A DNA stretch of 64,000 nt from Escherichia coli. Lineage in GTDB: Bacteria; Pseudomonadota; Gammaproteobacteria; Enterobacterales; Enterobacteriaceae. Below the pieces are notes generated by a model that was given only the letters and a program-made list of their open reading frames with translations, was not told the origin of the DNA and did not search any database. Positions 55,408 to 64,000 of this stretch are shown in pieces. Both the position numbers and the translations under genes were made by a program. The stretch lies in the NCBI RefSeq assembly GCF_016903815.1, contig NZ_CP069973.1, one strand, 5' to 3'. Within the stretch, counting starts at the first letter, position 1; each line of letters begins with the position of its first letter.

Positions 55408-56400
55408 TCAACGTTCGTAATAGTAATCCGACACCTCAGTAAAATCTATTTCCTCCCTAGAAAGTAATGATTCCATCTCATCTAGTTTATCGATTTGAGG
55501 CAAAACACTTGTTGGTGAAATCACAACATTAAAGTCCTCATTATATCGGTGACCTACCCTTGTGAGCTCTTTACCTAATTGCAACAATATATAATCACGT
55601 AAAATAAGTTGATTCCGTCTAAATCGAATAAGACGATAGTAATGGAAGAAATCAGAACATTTTGATGAATCATAATTTCTACCATTCCACCCGGTTTTCC
55701 TCGTAGCTCGGAATAATGCTTGCTCTTGCGTATTTTTCCAAATGCTAAAATCAAAGTGACTTTTCGGGTTAGGATTTTCGTATGTTGCTTGAGGATAAAA
55801 ATTAGTAACACCAAATTGATGCTTGTCAATGATCTTTAAAGTCCGATTTTGTTCAGACAACATCCGCCTTAAGGACCTAGGAATTTCGAAACGCATTAGT
55901 TTGTTTTTATCCAAGATTCTTAATTCTCTTGGAAGCATCTCATGATCCCGTTCTAAATATCTTTCACACCGTTTCGGCACATACTGAAAATACACTGAAA
56001 AAAAACAAAATATATTATCAGAAACGAGAGGAGTAATATGTATTTTTTCTTGCTCAGGAACGTTTTGAACAAAATAGTATGCCGTTCCTTGCCAAATCAA
56101 CGATTGCGCTACTGCCTCCACCAATTCACGTATTGTTTCATCTACCGAGTATTTCCTATATCTAGCTTGTAAATTTCCAAACATTTTACGTATGAGTTCT
56201 TCGTCGTTAGTTTCGACTTGAAACAAATTGGTATCACCGTGATTTACAAAATTAAAAACTCTAGCAAAATCCTCATAAAACATCCTTTGATAGAAACCTG
56301 GTCGTTCATTCTTAGACTTGGTCAATAGTCTATCAACAAAACTTAATTGCTCAGGATCGACGCTATAACCGTAAAGGGGTATATTCTTGATAATTTTCAT
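55408..56400 (-). CDS. Uncharacterised soluble protein, second gene of a candidate two-gene accessory (defence?) operon
   Basis: 330-aa ORF, ATG at 56400 with AGGA 7 nt upstream; ATGA overlap with the upstream gene stop; AT-rich; no family motif recognised by eye. Confidence 0.6.
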   Translation of the reverse strand: MKIIKNIPLYGYSVDPEQLSFVDRLLTKSKNERPGFYQRMFYEDFARVFNFVNHGDTNLFQVETNDEELIRKMFGNLQARYRKYSVDETIRELVEAVAQSLIWQGTAYYFVQNVPEQEKIHITPLVSDNIFCFFSVYFQYVPKRCERYLERDHEMLPRELRILDKNKLMRFEIPRSLRRMLSEQNRTLKIIDKHQFGVTNFYPQATYENPNPKSHFDFSIWKNTQEQALFRATRKTGWNGRNYDSSKCSDFFHYYRLIRFRRNQLILRDYILLQLGKELTRVGHRYNEDFNVVISPTSVLPQIDKLDEMESLLSREEIDFTEVSDYYYER

Positions 56401-58862
56401 TCAAAATCCTTATCGTATTCCACGCCAAAACGACGAGCCAACTCACTAACATGGTAATCGATCTTGAAGTCAATTTGCTCGAGTTGCGGGAAAATTTCGA
56501 GAGCACAAAAGAGATGCGATGCATCTGAATGGGAGTTTAAGAACTCTCTGACAACTTTGTTCGTATGAGATTTCCCTCGATTCATTCCCATTTGATCGCT
56601 AAAGCCATCATGTCTTGCGCGGCGCTCAAATTCCATTTTCCAGTTAAGACGAATCATATCTCTCGGTGATGCGCACAAGCTGAAATTGCGCGGATTTGAA
56701 AGAATCATCATTCTCTTCAAATACTGCTGTTTGTTGGGAACAGACTCGAGCCAAGACTTAAACCTATCAAGTACTGTTTTAGATAGTTTTGCATTATCGA
56801 AATAAGCACTGTAAAGGATAGCAAAACCTAGAACTGACATCAGATCGTTGATCGCGGATGAAAGGAGATGCAGTCGAAACTCGTTGTTTATATCGAGTTT
56901 CGGATCTACAAATTTGGTATCTGATGCCAGCAATGAGAGAACCATGAACATAGGGAATACCTTGCTCAGTTTATTTTCATCATTCTGTTCAAGCGCATGT
57001 ATACATTCCTCAGCCAACTCAAAATATATCTGTCCAAAATGATCCGGTAGTTCATCATCTTGCTCTTGTTCAATGATATGTCCCACAATTTCCACCCTAC
57101 CAAGAATAGCTATAGCTTCATCCTGTGTAACGACAAACTGTTTGAGCATTTCAGCAATATTAATTTCTGGTAATGCGTATAGCTTTTCAGAGTAGTGCTC
57201 GTACTTTCTGTATCTCTCCAAGAGCAGAGAAAGTTCATTAAACCAATGGGGAAACTTCAAATGATTATGTAGGCTAGCGAGAACGACTTGCGTTGCGGCT
57301 TCCGGCATCTTCATGTTTATCAGTGAGTTAACGAAATCTGGAACCATGTTTACGTGAAAATCGCATACTTCTGGCAGAATTTTAGAATATTGTTGTAATA
57401 ACTTCTGAACCGCCAACTGCTGGACGTACTTTGGTTTGGATAATCTCTGTCCTTCAATCTCTTTTTCGAATTCGATACGTTCTACGATAAAGGCCAACTC
57501 AACCTGCAGAAAAGCAGGCAAAGTGTGTAGAGAGGTCTCTGTCCAGATATCATCTTTAAAGAACTGCTCCAATTCTTTCTCAAAAGTAATCATGCGGCGT
57601 AACATTTCAAGGCAAAGATTGCTGCCTAATGCAGCCCATGCATCCGCAATTCCAACTTTTATCACCTTTTCCTCAAAATAATTAACGACATCAGACGGTG
57701 TAAAGGCTTTTTCAATGATCGTCTTCATTTTCCGAAGTTCACGTATACCAATATCGAACTGAAACTGTTGTGCATAAGTTAATATACGAGATGAGAATAG
57801 ACTGATGAGATCCAACCCGAGCTTGAAATCACCGGCTTTGAATGCAAGTTCAATATGGCCTACCAACCTATTGATAATTTCATTCTCTAACCAAAGATAA
57901 TTTGGTTCTTCTTCAACCGTTAATTGGCTCCTTGTTTTTAAAGCAATGGATGTTACACTGTCGCCAGCTAAGAACCATTGCTTATGTTTTATTCGTCTAG
58001 GGAACCAGTAACTTTGATAATCAATTCTGTGTTTCTGATTAAGGTAATGAAGAAGTAATGCCGAATAAACATTACTGAGAGCAGGTAAATTATCTCCGAG
58101 TCCTACTTTTTCACATATCAGGCGATCATCAATGTAGTTTAACTGCTCAAAGGCCAAATGTGCGGCTTTAGAGTGATGATTAGCTAAAGATACTGAATTC
58201 TTGGGATTAGACGCACCTTCGATGTGTCGTGCAATTCGTGGGAGTATTTCACTTCGGGCTAACTGATTTAGGTCAAAAAAATTGAATAATCTTTGACCTA
58301 ATGGGAACAGAGCTAAGGAACTAACAAGTGTCAGCAATGTTCCCATTGCATAAACGAAAAGACCGGGTTCAACCCCGAACAAGTGGAGAGCAGTTGCACT
58401 AAGACAAAACACCGCAGAAAGCACTAAAGTCCGCGAATACACATTACCTACCTGCTCGGTAGTAAGCATTTGTATAATATCTCGCCGAAGTCTGGTATAT
58501 CCTGTACTTAGAATGATACCTATTGTAGCAAAGTATATTGAAAATATAGCGGTAAGTATCTGTGCGTACAACCTAAGTTGATCAATATTAAATTTTTTTT
58601 CATCATAGCTAAGAGGATGAAGCAAAATCGTATTATTCCGAATATAATCTTCAACAAAACCCAGTGCAAATAACGTTAATATGACCCATAACAAATTTTT
58701 TAAACCTACCAACGCAAAAGACATAAAAACATGAGCGTTAGACTTAGCTTTAAAAACAGACGTACGATGTATGTATGACGCACGTTCTAAAATAAATCTA
58801 ACCCTCACAAGATCTGTTCTTAATTTCCAGAACCACTTTTGAGAAATAAGCCAAACCTTCAT
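56397..58862 (-). CDS. Uncharacterised large membrane-anchored protein (four N-terminal TM helices plus ~600-aa cytoplasmic domain), first gene of the candidate operon
   Basis: ORF 56397-58874 (TTG) with first ATG at 58862 (about 821 aa); hydrophobic segments VFMSFALVGLKNLLWVILTLFALGF, LYAQILTAIFSIYFATIGIILST, RTLVLSAVFCLSATALHLF, LFVYAMGTLLTLVSSLALFPL; no Walker A, HNH or other obvious motif found by eye. Confidence 0.6.
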   Translation of the reverse strand: MKVWLISQKWFWKLRTDLVRVRFILERASYIHRTSVFKAKSNAHVFMSFALVGLKNLLWVILTLFALGFVEDYIRNNTILLHPLSYDEKKFNIDQLRLYAQILTAIFSIYFATIGIILSTGYTRLRRDIIQMLTTEQVGNVYSRTLVLSAVFCLSATALHLFGVEPGLFVYAMGTLLTLVSSLALFPLGQRLFNFFDLNQLARSEILPRIARHIEGASNPKNSVSLANHHSKAAHLAFEQLNYIDDRLICEKVGLGDNLPALSNVYSALLLHYLNQKHRIDYQSYWFPRRIKHKQWFLAGDSVTSIALKTRSQLTVEEEPNYLWLENEIINRLVGHIELAFKAGDFKLGLDLISLFSSRILTYAQQFQFDIGIRELRKMKTIIEKAFTPSDVVNYFEEKVIKVGIADAWAALGSNLCLEMLRRMITFEKELEQFFKDDIWTETSLHTLPAFLQVELAFIVERIEFEKEIEGQRLSKPKYVQQLAVQKLLQQYSKILPEVCDFHVNMVPDFVNSLINMKMPEAATQVVLASLHNHLKFPHWFNELSLLLERYRKYEHYSEKLYALPEINIAEMLKQFVVTQDEAIAILGRVEIVGHIIEQEQDDELPDHFGQIYFELAEECIHALEQNDENKLSKVFPMFMVLSLLASDTKFVDPKLDINNEFRLHLLSSAINDLMSVLGFAILYSAYFDNAKLSKTVLDRFKSWLESVPNKQQYLKRMMILSNPRNFSLCASPRDMIRLNWKMEFERRARHDGFSDQMGMNRGKSHTNKVVREFLNSHSDASHLFCALEIFPQLEQIDFKIDYHVSELARRFGVEYDKDFE

Positions 58863-59087
58863 TATATCAATCAAGTGATACCTGCCTTCTCATCTCTACA
58901 TGCAACATAAAAATGCTTACTATGGTGGCAAACAAAATCAAGAATCATATGTTTGAACACTTTTTACGCACGAATTATCCGGTGTAAGATACTTATAGTC
59001 AAATGGCAGGGCTAATCTCATCTGTATTGAGCTATTAACAGCCATATGTAAGACTAAGAAACGCGCCCAGCAAAGGCGCGTTCTGCA

Positions 59088-59264
59088 TCAGGTAAGTTTG
59101 CTGGGGTCTACGGTTTCCATCCAATCTGGAGCAATTCCCAAACGTTCCGCTATCTCTTCGTTGGTCATGTCTTCAGTTGAGAAATTAGCCAGAGAATCGT
59201 TAACTTCAGGATAGTCAGGGGAGAGTAACAGGTATTCCCGCAACGCTTTCAGATCTTTTTCCAT
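59088..59264 (-). CDS. Small hypothetical protein with downstream terminator
   Basis: 58-aa ORF (MEKDLKALREYLLLSPDYPEVNDSLANFSTEDMTNEEIAERLGIAPDWMETVDPSKLT), not in the ORF track; followed on its strand by hairpin aacgcgcc/ggcgcgtt (59056-59086). Confidence 0.3.
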   Translation of the reverse strand: MEKDLKALREYLLLSPDYPEVNDSLANFSTEDMTNEEIAERLGIAPDWMETVDPSKLT

Positions 59265-59431
59265 TTTAACGCTCCTTGTTTATTGACAGTCGAACGATGG
59301 TGAAGATTCTTGCCATCTCAAGTACAGGCAAGAAAATCCACCAGAACACCAAATTATCTCATAAGGTTAAATCGGTGTCGGGCTATTTCTTTCGGCTAGG
59401 TGAGTGTACCGCCTTAACCACCGGCAATTAT

Positions 59432-59560
59432 CATTGTCTCAATTGGGTATACCGTAATGACAAGGTGATACAAAGTCTCAATAGGGTTGTATAGGAACAT
59501 TTTGACTACACAAAATGCATTATGTATCATTTGCACTTATATTCACAACCCTATTGAGAC
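59432..59560. promoter_or_regulatory. Putative recombination (res-like) site with perfect 16-bp inverted repeat upstream of the serine recombinase
   Basis: gtctcaatagggttgt (59475-59490) and acaaccctattgagac (59545-59560) are perfect reverse complements separated by 54 bp; a related half-site 'tgtctcaattggg' lies at ~59437-59449. Confidence 0.5.
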
Positions 59561-59566
59561 AATGCA

Positions 59567-60193
59567 ATGAACGTTAGAATTTACTGCCGAGCATCAACTG
59601 AGGGGCAACACGCTGATCGAGCACTTACCAGCCTACGTGAATTTTCAAAATCAAAAGGCTGGCAGATTGCAGGAGAGTATATAGAAAATGCTAGCGGGGC
59701 GAAGCTTGAGCGCGTAGAGCTTATGCGGCTATTGTCTGAAGCCCAGTCCGGCGATCTGTTGCTAGTGGAAGCTATAGATCGTCTGAGTCGCCTAGAACAT
59801 AGCGCATGGGTCGAACTGAAAGATACGCTCAACCGAAAAGGGTTAATCATCGTATCAATGGATTTACCAACGAGCTGGCAGATGGTCGAGATGGCAGGCA
59901 ATGACCTAACCAGCGGCATCCTGAGAGCCGTAAATGCCATGTTGATTGATATCCTTGCCACAATGGCACGGCAGGATTACGAAACACGTCGTAAACGCCA
60001 ACAGCAAGGCATTGAGCGAGCTAAAAGCGAAGGAATATACATTGGCAGGGAGAAAAATCAGGAAGCCCGAGAGATCGTTAGAGAGATGTTGGAGCAAGGA
60101 GTAAAACCTGAACTCATCATGAAGGCAGCAGGAATCAGCCGAGCGACTTACTACCGTATAAAAAGTGAGCTGTCAGTCGTAAAATCAGAATAA
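59567..60193 (+). CDS. Serine recombinase (resolvase/invertase family)
   Basis: 208 aa; N-terminal catalytic region 'VRIYCRASTEGQ' with the nucleophilic Ser; C-terminal HTH 'ISRATYYRIK'. Confidence 0.85.
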   Translation: MNVRIYCRASTEGQHADRALTSLREFSKSKGWQIAGEYIENASGAKLERVELMRLLSEAQSGDLLLVEAIDRLSRLEHSAWVELKDTLNRKGLIIVSMDLPTSWQMVEMAGNDLTSGILRAVNAMLIDILATMARQDYETRRKRQQQGIERAKSEGIYIGREKNQEAREIVREMLEQGVKPELIMKAAGISRATYYRIKSELSVVKSE

Positions 60194-60327
60194 CCTTTGA
60201 AAGGTCGTCAGGCTTGTTTCATCTGCTAAAAGCCAGCATTTCTGACCATAATACCTGGGGGCACCTACTGGGGCACCCACCAAAATCGAAAGACAAATAA
60301 GTTATAATTCAATCTGTTAGTTTACTT

Positions 60328-60350
60328 TTCGATTCCTGCAGGGGACACCA
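60328..60350. repeat. att core repeat (third copy of argW 3' end); distal junction of island 2
   Basis: 23-bp TTCGATTCCTGCAGGGGACACCA identical to argW positions 10812-10834. Confidence 0.8.
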
Positions 60351-60790
60351 GATACCCTTCAAACCAAATCTACCTTCACCCCGTAAAAGATGGGTTTGGC
60401 GCACACTAGCCCTATATCTACTCATTTTTACTGCAACAGGTTGAAATCTCAGCACTGTCAGAAAGCGCTGATGACTAAACAGCCCTGGGCCGGGCGATGT
60501 AACCATCATACAGAATCCTGATAGCGAAATATGGCGTGACTCGATACTTCACTCTGCAATGCATTCCTTGATGAATTCGCAGGCCCGTGATACTCGGGAC
60601 AGGTCGCTGAATGACGACAATGTCCTGGAAATCAGCGAACCGCGTATCCGGAGTACATTTGAGCGACTGTACCAGAACATGAATGAGGCGTTTGGATTAG
60701 GTGATTATTAGTTGGGCTAAGCATTTTTGTATTATTATTTTCCGGTTGAGGGATATGGAGATATCGACAACAACCGGAAAAAGTTTACGT

Positions 60791-62038
60791 CTATATTGCT
60801 GAAGGTACAGGCGTTTCCATAACTATTTGCTCGCGTTTTTTACTCAGGAAGAAAATGCCAAATAGCAACATCAGGCAGACAATACCCGAAATTGCGAAGA
60901 AAACTGTCTGGTAGCCTGCGTGGTCAAAGAGTATCCCAGTCGGCGTTGAAAGCAGCACAATCCCAAGCGAACTGGCAATTTGAAAACCAATCAGAAAGAT
61001 CGTCGACGACAGGCGCTTATCAAAGTTTGCCACGCTGTATTTGAAGACGGATATGACACAAAGTGGAACCTCAATGGCATGTAACAGCTTCACTAATGAA
61101 ATAATCCAGGGGTTAACGAACAACGCGCAGGAAAGGATACGCAACGCCATAATCACAACACCGATAAGTAATGCATTTTTTGGCCCTACCCGATTCACAA
61201 AGAAAGGAATAATCGCCATGCACAGCGCTTCGAGTACCACCTGGAATGAGTTGAGATAACCATACAGGCGCGTTCCTACATCGTGTGATTCGAATAAACC
61301 TGCATAAAAGACAGGAAAGAGTTGTTGATCAAAAATGTTATAGAAAGACCACGTCCCCACAATAAATATGACGAAAACCCAGAAGTTTCGATCCTTGAAA
61401 ACTGCGATAAAATCCTCTTTTTTTACCCCTCCCGCATCCGCCGCTATGCACTGGTGATCCTTATCTTTAAAACGCATGTTGATCATCATAAATACAGCGC
61501 CAAATAGCGAGACCAACCAGAAGTTGATATGGGGACTGATACTAAAAAATATACCGGCAAAGAACGCGCCAATAGCATAGCCAAAAGATCCCCAGGCGCG
61601 CGCTGTTCCATATTCGAAATGAAAATTTCGCGCCATTTTTTCGGTGAAGCTGTCAAGCAAACCGCATCCCGCCAGATACCCCAGGCCAAAAAAGAGCGCC
61701 CCCAGAATTAGACCTACAGAAAAATTGCTTTGCAGTAACGGTTCATAAACGTAAATCATAAACGGTCCGGTCAAGACCAGAATGAAACTCATACACCAGA
61801 TGAGCGGTTTCTTCAGACCGAGTTTATCCTGAACGATGCCGTAGAACATCATAAATAGAATGCTGGTAAACTGGTTGACCGAATAAAGTGTACCTAATTC
61901 CGTCCCTGTTAATCCTAGATGTCCTTTCAGCCAAATAGCGTATAACGACCACCACAGCGACCAGGAAATAAAAAAGAGAAATGAGTAACTGGATGCAAAA
62001 CGATAGTACGCATTTCTGAATGGAATATTCAGTGCCAT
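60791..62038 (-). CDS. cscB: Sucrose:proton symporter (oligosaccharide/H+ symporter, LacY family)
   Basis: 415-aa 12-TM protein; translation matches my memory of CscB; adjacent to cscK and divergent cscA. Confidence 0.9.
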   Translation of the reverse strand: MALNIPFRNAYYRFASSYSFLFFISWSLWWSLYAIWLKGHLGLTGTELGTLYSVNQFTSILFMMFYGIVQDKLGLKKPLIWCMSFILVLTGPFMIYVYEPLLQSNFSVGLILGALFFGLGYLAGCGLLDSFTEKMARNFHFEYGTARAWGSFGYAIGAFFAGIFFSISPHINFWLVSLFGAVFMMINMRFKDKDHQCIAADAGGVKKEDFIAVFKDRNFWVFVIFIVGTWSFYNIFDQQLFPVFYAGLFESHDVGTRLYGYLNSFQVVLEALCMAIIPFFVNRVGPKNALLIGVVIMALRILSCALFVNPWIISLVKLLHAIEVPLCVISVFKYSVANFDKRLSSTIFLIGFQIASSLGIVLLSTPTGILFDHAGYQTVFFAISGIVCLMLLFGIFFLSKKREQIVMETPVPSAI

Positions 62039-62099
62039 AATTACCTGCCTGTCGTTAAAAAATTCATGTCCTATTTAGAGATAAGAGCGGCCTCGCCGT

Positions 62100-63023
62100 T
62101 TACTTCTCACCTTCCAGTTCTTGTCGACATGGCAGCGCTGTCATTGCCCCTTTCGCTGTTACTGCAAGCGCTCCGCAACGTTGAGCGAGATTGATAATTC
62201 GTCGCATTTCTCTCTCATCTGTAGATAATCCCGTAGAGGACAGACCTGTGAGTAACCCGGCAACGAACGCATCTCCCGCCCCAGTGCTATCGACACAATT
62301 CACAGACATTCCAGCAAAATGGTGAACTTGTCCTCGATAACAGACCACCACCCCTTCTGCACCTTTAGTCACCAACAGCATGGCGATCTCATACTCTTTT
62401 GCCAGCGCGCATATATCCCGATCGTTCTGTGTTTTTCCACTGATAAGTCGCCATTCTTCTTCCGAGAGCTTGACGACATCCGCCAGTTGTAGCGCCTGCC
62501 GCAAACACAAGCGGAACAAATGCTCGTCTTGCCATAGATCTTCACGAATATTGGGATCGAAGCTGACAAAACCTCCGGCATGCCGGATCGCCGTCATCGC
62601 AGTAAATGCGCTGGTACGCGAAGGCTCGGCAGACAACGCAATTGAACAGAGATGTAACCATTCGCCATGTCGCCAGCAGGGCAAGTCTGTCGTCTCTAAA
62701 AAAAGATCGGCACTGGGGCGGACCATAAACGTAAATGAACGTTCTCCTTGATCGTTCAGATCGACAAGCACCGTGGATGTCCGGTGCCATTCATCTTGCT
62801 TCAGATACGTGATATCGACACCCTCAGTTAGCAGCGTTCTTTGCATTAACGCACCAAAAGGATCATCACCGACCCGACCTATAAACCCACTTGTTCCGCC
62901 TAATCTGGCGATTCCCACCGCAACGTTAGCTGGCGCGCCGCCAGGACAAGGCAGTAGCCGCCCGTCTGATTCTGGCAAGAGATCTACGACCGCATCCCCT
63001 AAAACCCATACTTTGGCTGACAT
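62100..63023 (-). CDS. cscK: Fructokinase (PfkB/ribokinase family)
   Basis: 307 aa; PfkB signatures (N-terminal GxAxxD region, C-terminal 'DSTGAGDAF' motif). Confidence 0.9.
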   Translation of the reverse strand: MSAKVWVLGDAVVDLLPESDGRLLPCPGGAPANVAVGIARLGGTSGFIGRVGDDPFGALMQRTLLTEGVDITYLKQDEWHRTSTVLVDLNDQGERSFTFMVRPSADLFLETTDLPCWRHGEWLHLCSIALSAEPSRTSAFTAMTAIRHAGGFVSFDPNIREDLWQDEHLFRLCLRQALQLADVVKLSEEEWRLISGKTQNDRDICALAKEYEIAMLLVTKGAEGVVVCYRGQVHHFAGMSVNCVDSTGAGDAFVAGLLTGLSSTGLSTDEREMRRIINLAQRCGALAVTAKGAMTALPCRQELEGEK

Positions 63024-63128
63024 TTTTTTCCCTTAAATTCATCTGACTTACGCATAGTGATAAACCTCTTTTTCGCAAAATCGTCATGGATTTACTAAAA
63101 CATGCATATTCGATCACAAAACGTCATA

Positions 63129-63204
63129 GTTAACGTTAACATTTGTGATATTCATCGCATTTATGAAAGTAATGGACTTTATTTTTATAAAAGTTAACGT
63201 TAAC
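63129..63204. promoter_or_regulatory. Divergent cscKB/cscA promoter region with two copies of the 12-bp palindrome GTTAACGTTAAC (candidate CscR operators)
   Basis: GTTAACGTTAAC at 63129-63140 and 63193-63204 in the intergenic region between cscK and cscA. Confidence 0.5.
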
Positions 63205-63238
63205 AATTCACCAAATTTGCTTAACCAGGATGATAAAA

Positions 63239-64000
63239 ATGACGCAATCTCGATTACATGCGGCGCAAAACGCACTAGCAAAACTTCACGAGCGCCGAGG
63301 TAACACTTTCTATCCCCATTTTCACCTCGCGCCTCCTGCCGGGTGGATGAACGATCCAAACGGCCTGATCTGGTTTAACGATCGTTATCACGCGTTTTAT
63401 CAACATCACCCGATGAGCGAACACTGGGGGCCAATGCACTGGGGACATGCCACCAGCGACGATATGATCCACTGGCAGCATAAGCCTATTGCGCTAGCGC
63501 CAGGAGACGAGAATGACAAAGACGGGTGTTTTTCAGGTAGTGCTGTCGATGACAATGGTGTCCTCTCACTTATCTACACCGGACACGTCTGGCTCGATGG
63601 TGCAGGTAATGACGATGCAATTCGCGAAGTACAATGTCTGGCTACCAGTCGGGATGGTATTCATTTCGAGAAACAGGGTGTGATCCTCACTCCACCAGAA
63701 GGAATCATGCACTTCCGCGATCCTAAAGTGTGGCGTGAAGCCGACACATGGTGGATGGTTGTCGGGGCGAAAGATCCAGGCAACACGGGGCAGATCCTGC
63801 TTTATCGCGGCAGTTCATTGCGTGAATGGACCTTCGATCGCGTACTGGCCCACGCTGATGCGGGTGAAAGCTATATGTGGGAATGTCCGGACTTTTTCAG
63901 CCTTGGCGATCAGCATTATCTGATGTTTTCCCCGCAGGGAATGAATGCCGAGGGATACAGTTACCGAAATCGCTTTCAAAGTGGCGTAATACCCGGAATG
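63239..64000 (+). CDS. cscA: Sucrose-6-phosphate hydrolase / invertase (GH32), 5' part only; continues past the window end
   Basis: Open frame from ATG 63239 to the window end: [48 protein letters not shown]... with the GH32 'WMNDPNG' catalytic motif. Confidence 0.9.

Follow-up and report, generated by a model that had tools for sequence, protein, structure and literature searches.

How are the two divergent sucrose operons of Escherichia coli, cscKB and cscA, controlled from the single intergenic region between them? We analyzed a stretch of E. coli DNA of 64,000 nucleotides (contig NZ_CP069973.1, referred to below as the window), in which this region occupies the whole gap between the ATG codons of cscK (63023, minus strand) and cscA (63239) and carries two copies of a 12-bp palindrome. 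A sequence-only reading of the window had proposed that the palindromes are operators of CscR, the LacI-family sucrose repressor. Evidence from the window, from published work and from related loci makes it very probable that both palindromes are the putative CscR operators, a judgement that covers their identity together with the mechanism proposed below.

As shown in Table 1, the genes on both sides of the region were assigned by protein family models. The model TIGR00882, to which the cscB product was matched, describes oligosaccharide MFS transporters, and the name cscB is used in several RefSeq genomes. The score of cscK against the fructokinase equivalog NF006957 is above the cutoff of 450 bits; the label "aminoimidazole riboside kinase", given by RefSeq/PGAP to this gene (62100-63023) in most genomes, conflicts with that match. 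The full cscA gene encodes 477 amino acid residues in the identical locus L001 (TIGR01322, 3e-143).

Table 1. Features of the csc locus in the window.
Feature	Position	Strand	Description
cscB, sucrose:H+ symporter (MFS)	60791..62038	-	415-aa ORF; TIGR00882, 8.6e-179; second gene of the cscKB operon
cscK, fructokinase	62100..63023	-	307-aa ORF; NF006957, 505.9 bits; first gene of the leftward operon
CRP-like site 2 (TGCATattcgaTCACA)	63103..63118	.	7/10 core positions; predicted activator site of the cscKB promoter
Distal putative CscR operator ("cscKB operator" of the literature)	63129..63140	.	exact palindrome, conserved in CscR-linked loci; extended 18-bp site 63126-63143
CRP-like site 1 (TGTGAtattcaTCGCA)	63144..63159	.	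9/10 core positions; predicted activator site of the cscA promoter
Candidate -10 hexamer TATTTT of the cscA promoter	63180..63185	+	proposed from clade conservation and CRP-1 geometry
Proximal putative CscR operator	63193..63204	.	exact palindrome; extended site 63190-63207
Divergent cscKB/cscA control region	63024..63238	.	215 bp, 29% G+C
cscA, GH32 sucrose hydrolase/invertase, 5' part	63239..64000	+	runs past the window end

The sequence-only reading had placed cscR downstream of cscA, beyond the window. Positions 56000-64000 are 100% identical to E. coli strain 7/2, and there a LacI-family gene of 331 amino acid residues (cscR) does lie directly downstream of cscA in convergent orientation, followed by a dsdX fragment and then by dsdA. 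The csc gene set is thus complete, with cscKB and cscA divergent, in the order cscB< cscK< >cscA <cscR.

The csc genes had also been described as accessory DNA near argW, and this was borne out. The control region is present in 2662 of 5426 complete E. coli genomes, each time at 95% identity or more, which fits accessory DNA. The argW gene, a tRNA-Arg(CCT) gene at 10760-10834, is followed by a mosaic P22-like prophage and a small island. In comparison with strain 7/2, the prophage (window positions of about 11000-56000) consists of blocks of 94-99.8% identity broken by unrelated segments. Since the csc genes of strain Trh52 directly adjoin argW, about 50 kb of inserted DNA separates csc from argW in the window. 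A small gene of the serine recombinase family and a DUF4942 fragment are located between the island and cscB (59567-60193 and 60529-60711). The DUF4942 fragment is the sole item between argW and cscB in Trh52, and because of this it may mark an old island boundary.

The palindrome, GTTAACGTTAAC, was found at exactly the two positions given by the sequence-only reading, and no further match was detected in the 64-kb window when one mismatch was allowed. Dinucleotide-preserving shuffles of the window gave 0.12 matches on average, with two or more in 0 of 100 shuffles. Being a perfect palindrome around a central CG, the 12-mer reads the same on both strands, and it can also be taken as two tandem GTTAAC units. 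The repeat common to both sites is longer than first noted, namely AGTTAACGTTAACAWTT, 17 nt at 94% identity. The two copies are spaced 64 bp start-to-start, which is about six helical turns, in a region whose G+C content is 29.3%, against a window average of 45.9%. Measured to the cscA ATG, the distance is 34 nt from the end of the proximal site and 98 nt from the distal site, which is 105 nt away from the cscK ATG.

The element is not new, and the present finding is a rediscovery. According to the account of csc regulation in PMC11251922, Jahreis et al. in 2002 recognized a 12-bp inverted repeat, present twice between cscA and cscK, as the putative CscR operators, and a mutation in one repeat was found to raise expression. 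In that source the repeats flank the -35 and -10 elements of the cscA promoter, the downstream repeat covers the transcription start, a putative CRP site adjoins the -35 region, and repeats, promoter elements and CRP site are conserved in five species. In E. coli W, a previously known mutation of the putative cscKB operator, which confers growth on low sucrose, arose again spontaneously; the bidirectional csc promoter has two cAMP-CRP sites, and cscR knockouts derepress the regulon (PMC3938415). The operators are termed putative in both PMC11251922 and PMC3938415. A full-text literature search for the 12-mer GTTAACGTTAAC returned unrelated papers only.

Loci were retrieved by the CscR protein only, with one genome per species. 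This gave 74 gammaproteobacterial loci whose CscR relatives share 48-96% identity; six distant matches of the search were left out of this set. One retrieval pattern (MMTVSRVM) lies in the DNA-recognition helix, so that the sample is biased toward regulators expected to read the same sequence. In the 1.18 Mb of these loci there were 75 exact copies of the 12-mer and 80 copies with one mismatch, against 0.08 and 3.0 expected from base composition. Most copies (74 of 75 exact, 72 of 80 one-mismatch) were located at most 300 bp upstream of the start of a csc homologue. At least one motif was present upstream of a csc homologue in 73 of the 74 loci, which are related by descent and hence are not independent observations. 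The claim that the palindromes are CscR operators is supported by this linkage, by the published naming of the same repeats and by the derepressing mutation in one of them.

A symmetrized profile from the 59 loci with paired operators gave an 18-bp palindrome, AAT-GTTAACGTTAAC-ATT, in which the information content of the core is circular, as the sites were chosen by similarity to the 12-mer. The flanks in the window itself are ATA...ATT and AAA...AAT. As a rule, LacI-family operators are palindromes with an even number of nucleotides (16-22) around a central CG, and they precede start codons by 30-140 bp (PMC4052901); the extended site agrees with this in length, in its central CG and in its distance to the start codons.

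The order of the csc genes changes greatly among the loci. It is cscK< >cscA in Escherichia, Citrobacter and Pluralibacter, and cscA< >cscB in Rosenbergiella. A transporter-cscA operon is divergent from cscR in the Enterobacter/Klebsiella/Raoultella/Serratia clade, and has cscR downstream of cscA in Pectobacterium, Samsonia and Rahnella. In Yersinia and Aeromonas it is cscA-cscK-cscB that is divergent from cscR, and in Silvania cscA-cscB. Despite these rearrangements the motif keeps to the promoter of the main structural operon, whether its first gene is cscA or the transporter gene, and is also kept where the divergent gene is cscR, cscB or cscK. In most loci, about 24-60 bp separate the equivalent of the proximal operator from the first structural gene; in Proteus and Aeromonas this operator is placed farther upstream. 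From Escherichia to Aeromonas the operator core is unchanged, while the flanking spacer has diverged beyond recognition.

Several lineages depart from the usual arrangement or extend it. In the Enterobacter/Klebsiella/Raoultella/Serratia clade (L029, L031-L033, L036-L037, L040-L043 and others; locus positions of about 7785-7870), a cassette of two operators and two CRP-like sites sits between the transporter-cscA operon and cscR, which suggests that cscR is autoregulated there. An extra operator-like pair 14 bp apart is found between cscB and cscR in Gilliamella and other Orbaceae, which are bee-gut bacteria (L034, L035, L038, L039, L067 and L072; about 7707-7850), and a pair spaced 20 bp in L049. 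Gilliamella loci L030, L034, L046 and L067 combine the extra pair with a pair spaced 57 bp upstream of cscA; L038, L039 and L072 have one exact site upstream of cscA, and no cscA was detected in the Orbaceae loci L035 and L049. In Providencia (L013-L018, L065) there is a single exact operator and the second copy is absent. Proteus (L020-L028, L070) has two one-mismatch operators 68-69 bp apart and no recognizable CRP site. From these last two layouts it follows that the cassette is not universal. The sole exact copy not upstream of a csc gene is that of Proteus myxofaciens, where cscR and cscA converge and GTTAACGTTAAC occurs between their 3' ends (L070, 9027-9038). In Providencia rustigianii (L019), a CscR relative of 55% identity was found in a 17-kb locus that contains neither csc structural genes nor the operator motif; this regulator either is an orphan or has a different target.

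When the loci are drawn with the main operon to the right, the distal operator has one CRP-like site 24 bp to its left and another 17 bp to its right, and about 47 bp beyond the latter comes the proximal operator, followed by the start codon. The corresponding centres in the window are 63110.5 (CRP-2), 63134.5 (distal operator), 63151.5 (CRP-1) and 63198.5 (proximal operator). Of the 59 paired loci, 45 have the centre of CRP-like site 1 (TGTGA-N6-TCACA) exactly 17 bp from that of the distal operator, and four Gilliamella loci have it 18 bp away; 44 of the 45 place this site 45-47 bp before the proximal operator. Site 2 is weaker; for 43 of the 59 loci, the best CRP-like site on the other side of the distal operator has its centre at a distance of exactly 24 bp, whatever gene adjoins. 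The 10-bp gap between the distal operator and this site keeps its length while its sequence changes. The operators themselves are 62-64 bp apart in 46 of the 59 paired loci, and exactly 64 bp apart in most of these 46. This distance results from the sum of 17 and 47 bp, which are set by CRP and promoter geometry.

A scan of 62900-63400 for consensus promoters and terminators gave no match; the absence of a consensus sigma-70 promoter is expected for a promoter that depends on an activator (CRP). The 9/10 match to the CRP core and the conserved TATTTT would fit CRP-1 placed near -41.5. TATTTT or TATCTT is kept at the -10 position in Escherichia and Citrobacter (L001-L005) and in Pluralibacter gergoviae (L008), and a search for a -10 element common to all genera found a conserved hexamer in this group only. 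TATAAA at 63186-63191, a more obvious -10 candidate, is not conserved. If CRP-1 acts as a class II site at -41.5, we infer from CRP geometry that transcription of cscA starts at about 63193, where the proximal operator begins; for cscKB a start at about 63069 on the minus strand is predicted. The published placement of the downstream operator over the transcription start (PMC11251922) is in agreement with the cscA position. A structured RNA formed by the transcribed proximal palindrome and the cscA leader was also considered and rejected (z-score 0.01).

Putting these elements together, we propose that without inducer CscR dimers would occupy both operators. The proximal dimer would cover the cscA transcription start and so block RNA polymerase. 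The distal dimer, placed between and against both CRP sites, would hinder activation of both divergent promoters by cAMP-CRP, because the 18-bp extended distal operator overlaps the 22-bp CRP-1 site by 3 bp and is 4 bp from the CRP-2 footprint. The distal site would also be the sole operator for the cscKB promoter. Sucrose or one of its products would presumably release CscR, and glucose starvation would supply cAMP-CRP. A third operator was sought near the cscK start and upstream of cscR in locus L001, and no site with three or fewer mismatches was present. As no operator-like site precedes it, E. coli cscR is probably not autoregulated through the GTTAACGTTAAC motif.

Four other accounts of the palindromes were weighed against these data. 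Two of them deny that CscR is the protein concerned. The repeats might be a chance product of an AT-rich spacer, or a neutral duplication of 14-17 bp, with no regulatory role; the low G+C content (29%), the reading as tandem GTTAAC and the loss of the segment between the copies in one natural strain could be taken in this sense. Two matches arose in none of the 100 shuffles, however, the published operator mutation derepresses the regulon, and the constancy of the core from Escherichia to Aeromonas within a diverged spacer is such that this account is effectively refuted by the conservation data. Alternatively, the sites might be bound by another LacI-family regulator that reads the AACGTT core, for example Cra/FruR or PurR. 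This core is common to several LacI-family operators, and fructose metabolism is linked to sucrose use. Nevertheless 73 of the 74 loci with a CscR relative carry the motif, which is almost absent from the rest of the 1.18 Mb, linkage to cscR is the one feature constant across genera and gene orders, and knockouts of cscR derepress the regulon (PMC3938415), so that such a regulator is very improbable.

The other two accounts accept CscR at both sites and differ in how repression is achieved. One is a DNA loop between CscR molecules bound 64 bp apart on the same face of the helix, enclosing CRP-1 and the core promoter of cscA. A promoter with an operator on each side is the classical loop layout, and a spacing of 62-64 bp recurs in 46 of the 59 paired loci. 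In LacI the C-terminal segment mediates tetramerization. Residues 3-318 of CscR align to residues 5-313 of LacI, and the protein ends at 331 compared with 360, so that a LacI-style tetramer loop is unlikely because CscR is without the C-terminal extension. Against looping there are also the spacings in Gilliamella (57 bp) and Proteus (68-69 bp), neither of which is in helical phase with 64 bp, the Providencia loci with a single operator, and the fact that 17 + 47 bp fully accounts for the 64 bp; a loop of any sort is in our view not a likely explanation. The last account is that the distal CscR acts as CytR does: it would bind cooperatively with the CRP dimers on its two sides and mask their activating surfaces, and would not compete with them for DNA. 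This account derives from the spacing: in most loci the distal operator lies between two CRP-like sites at rigid centre distances of 17 and 24 bp, the stretch of 10 bp toward CRP site 2 is constant in length while its sequence varies, and both presumed core promoters lie downstream of the operator. Among NCBIfam models, moreover, CscR matches that of CytR best, at 137.9 bits against a cutoff of 436, although a match so far below the cutoff reflects general family resemblance only. CRP sites at CytR-regulated promoters are about 50 bp apart, but the CRP centres here are 41 bp apart; competition is favoured by the 3 bp that the extended operator shares with the 22-bp CRP-1 site, and Proteus and Tatumella keep two operators without a recognizable CRP site. 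A rigid CRP-CscR-CRP assembly (24 + 17 bp, from Escherichia to Aeromonas), in which one dimer would silence both promoters through CytR-like anti-activation or positioned competition, is consequently rated as quite unlikely on the spacing data. If true, the csc cassette would represent a second, independently evolved LacI-family repressor working through CRP.

Variation within E. coli bears on the same elements. Among five sampled variants of the region, differences are scattered and densest between the operators, and none falls within an operator. E. coli O84:H7 strain Trh52 (NZ_CP047600.1; L082, 3001-3151) has a precise 64-bp deletion between the repeats, corresponding to 63127-63190 of the window, which leaves one operator and removes CRP-1 together with the core cscA promoter, so that weak expression of cscA is predicted for this strain. 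As this deletion lies between identical repeats, the repeats constitute a natural deletion hotspot. The deletion was confirmed in one strain, Trh52, and five of the 2662 genomes have incomplete coverage of the control region.

The csc regulon supports growth on sucrose of E. coli W and many wild strains and is widely engineered for sucrose-based fermentation. Locating the action of CscR and CRP would explain why operator or cscR mutants grow on low sucrose, and the site map tells engineers which 12-18 bp to alter. To the account in PMC11251922 the present analysis adds a species range wider than the five species aligned there, the fixed spacing of 24, 17 and 47 bp and the consensus extended to 18 bp. 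Its modest added value lies in the operator/CRP cassette, with its CRP-operator-CRP geometry, being conserved with base-pair-exact spacing over many genera and gene orders, in this cassette being a portable and well-defined sucrose- and cAMP-responsive promoter module, and in the deletion hotspot formed by the repeats.

The csc region may be compared with several known systems. In the part of PMC11251922 that treats scr regulation, the ScrR operators at the scrY promoter of pUR400 and Klebsiella (Cowan 1991; Jahreis and Lengeler 1993) resemble csc in that the downstream operator covers the start and a CRP site lies upstream; the ScrR repeats differ in being 14 bp long and of other sequence than the 12-bp csc repeats. 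ScrR and CscR belong to different orthologous groups, CscR matching the fructose/sucrose repressor model TIGR02417 at only 1e-11, and unlike scr, csc has its CRP site between the operators and drives two divergent operons from one region. The distal csc site resembles CytR-CRP arrangements at deoP2-type promoters: it is a LacI-family site flanked by two CRP-like sites and lies before what would be a class II-type promoter. It departs from the CytR cases in the 41-bp CRP-CRP distance. CytR sites are weak and CRP-dependent, whereas the CscR site is a strong and perfect palindrome. Like the operators of the LacI O1/O3 and GalR OE/OI loops, those of E. coli csc bracket the promoter and CRP site at integral helical turns; unlike LacI, CscR has no tetramerization tail, and the phasing is lost in Gilliamella and Proteus. 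The closest likeness is to the csc regulons of E. coli EC3132 and E. coli W, which, as far as the csc sections of PMC11251922 and PMC3938415 describe them, have the same two 12-bp inverted repeats, the cscA -35 and -10 elements between them, the adjacent CRP site and the derepressing mutation. There is no substantive difference from these regulons, and the window represents another E. coli strain with an identical layout.
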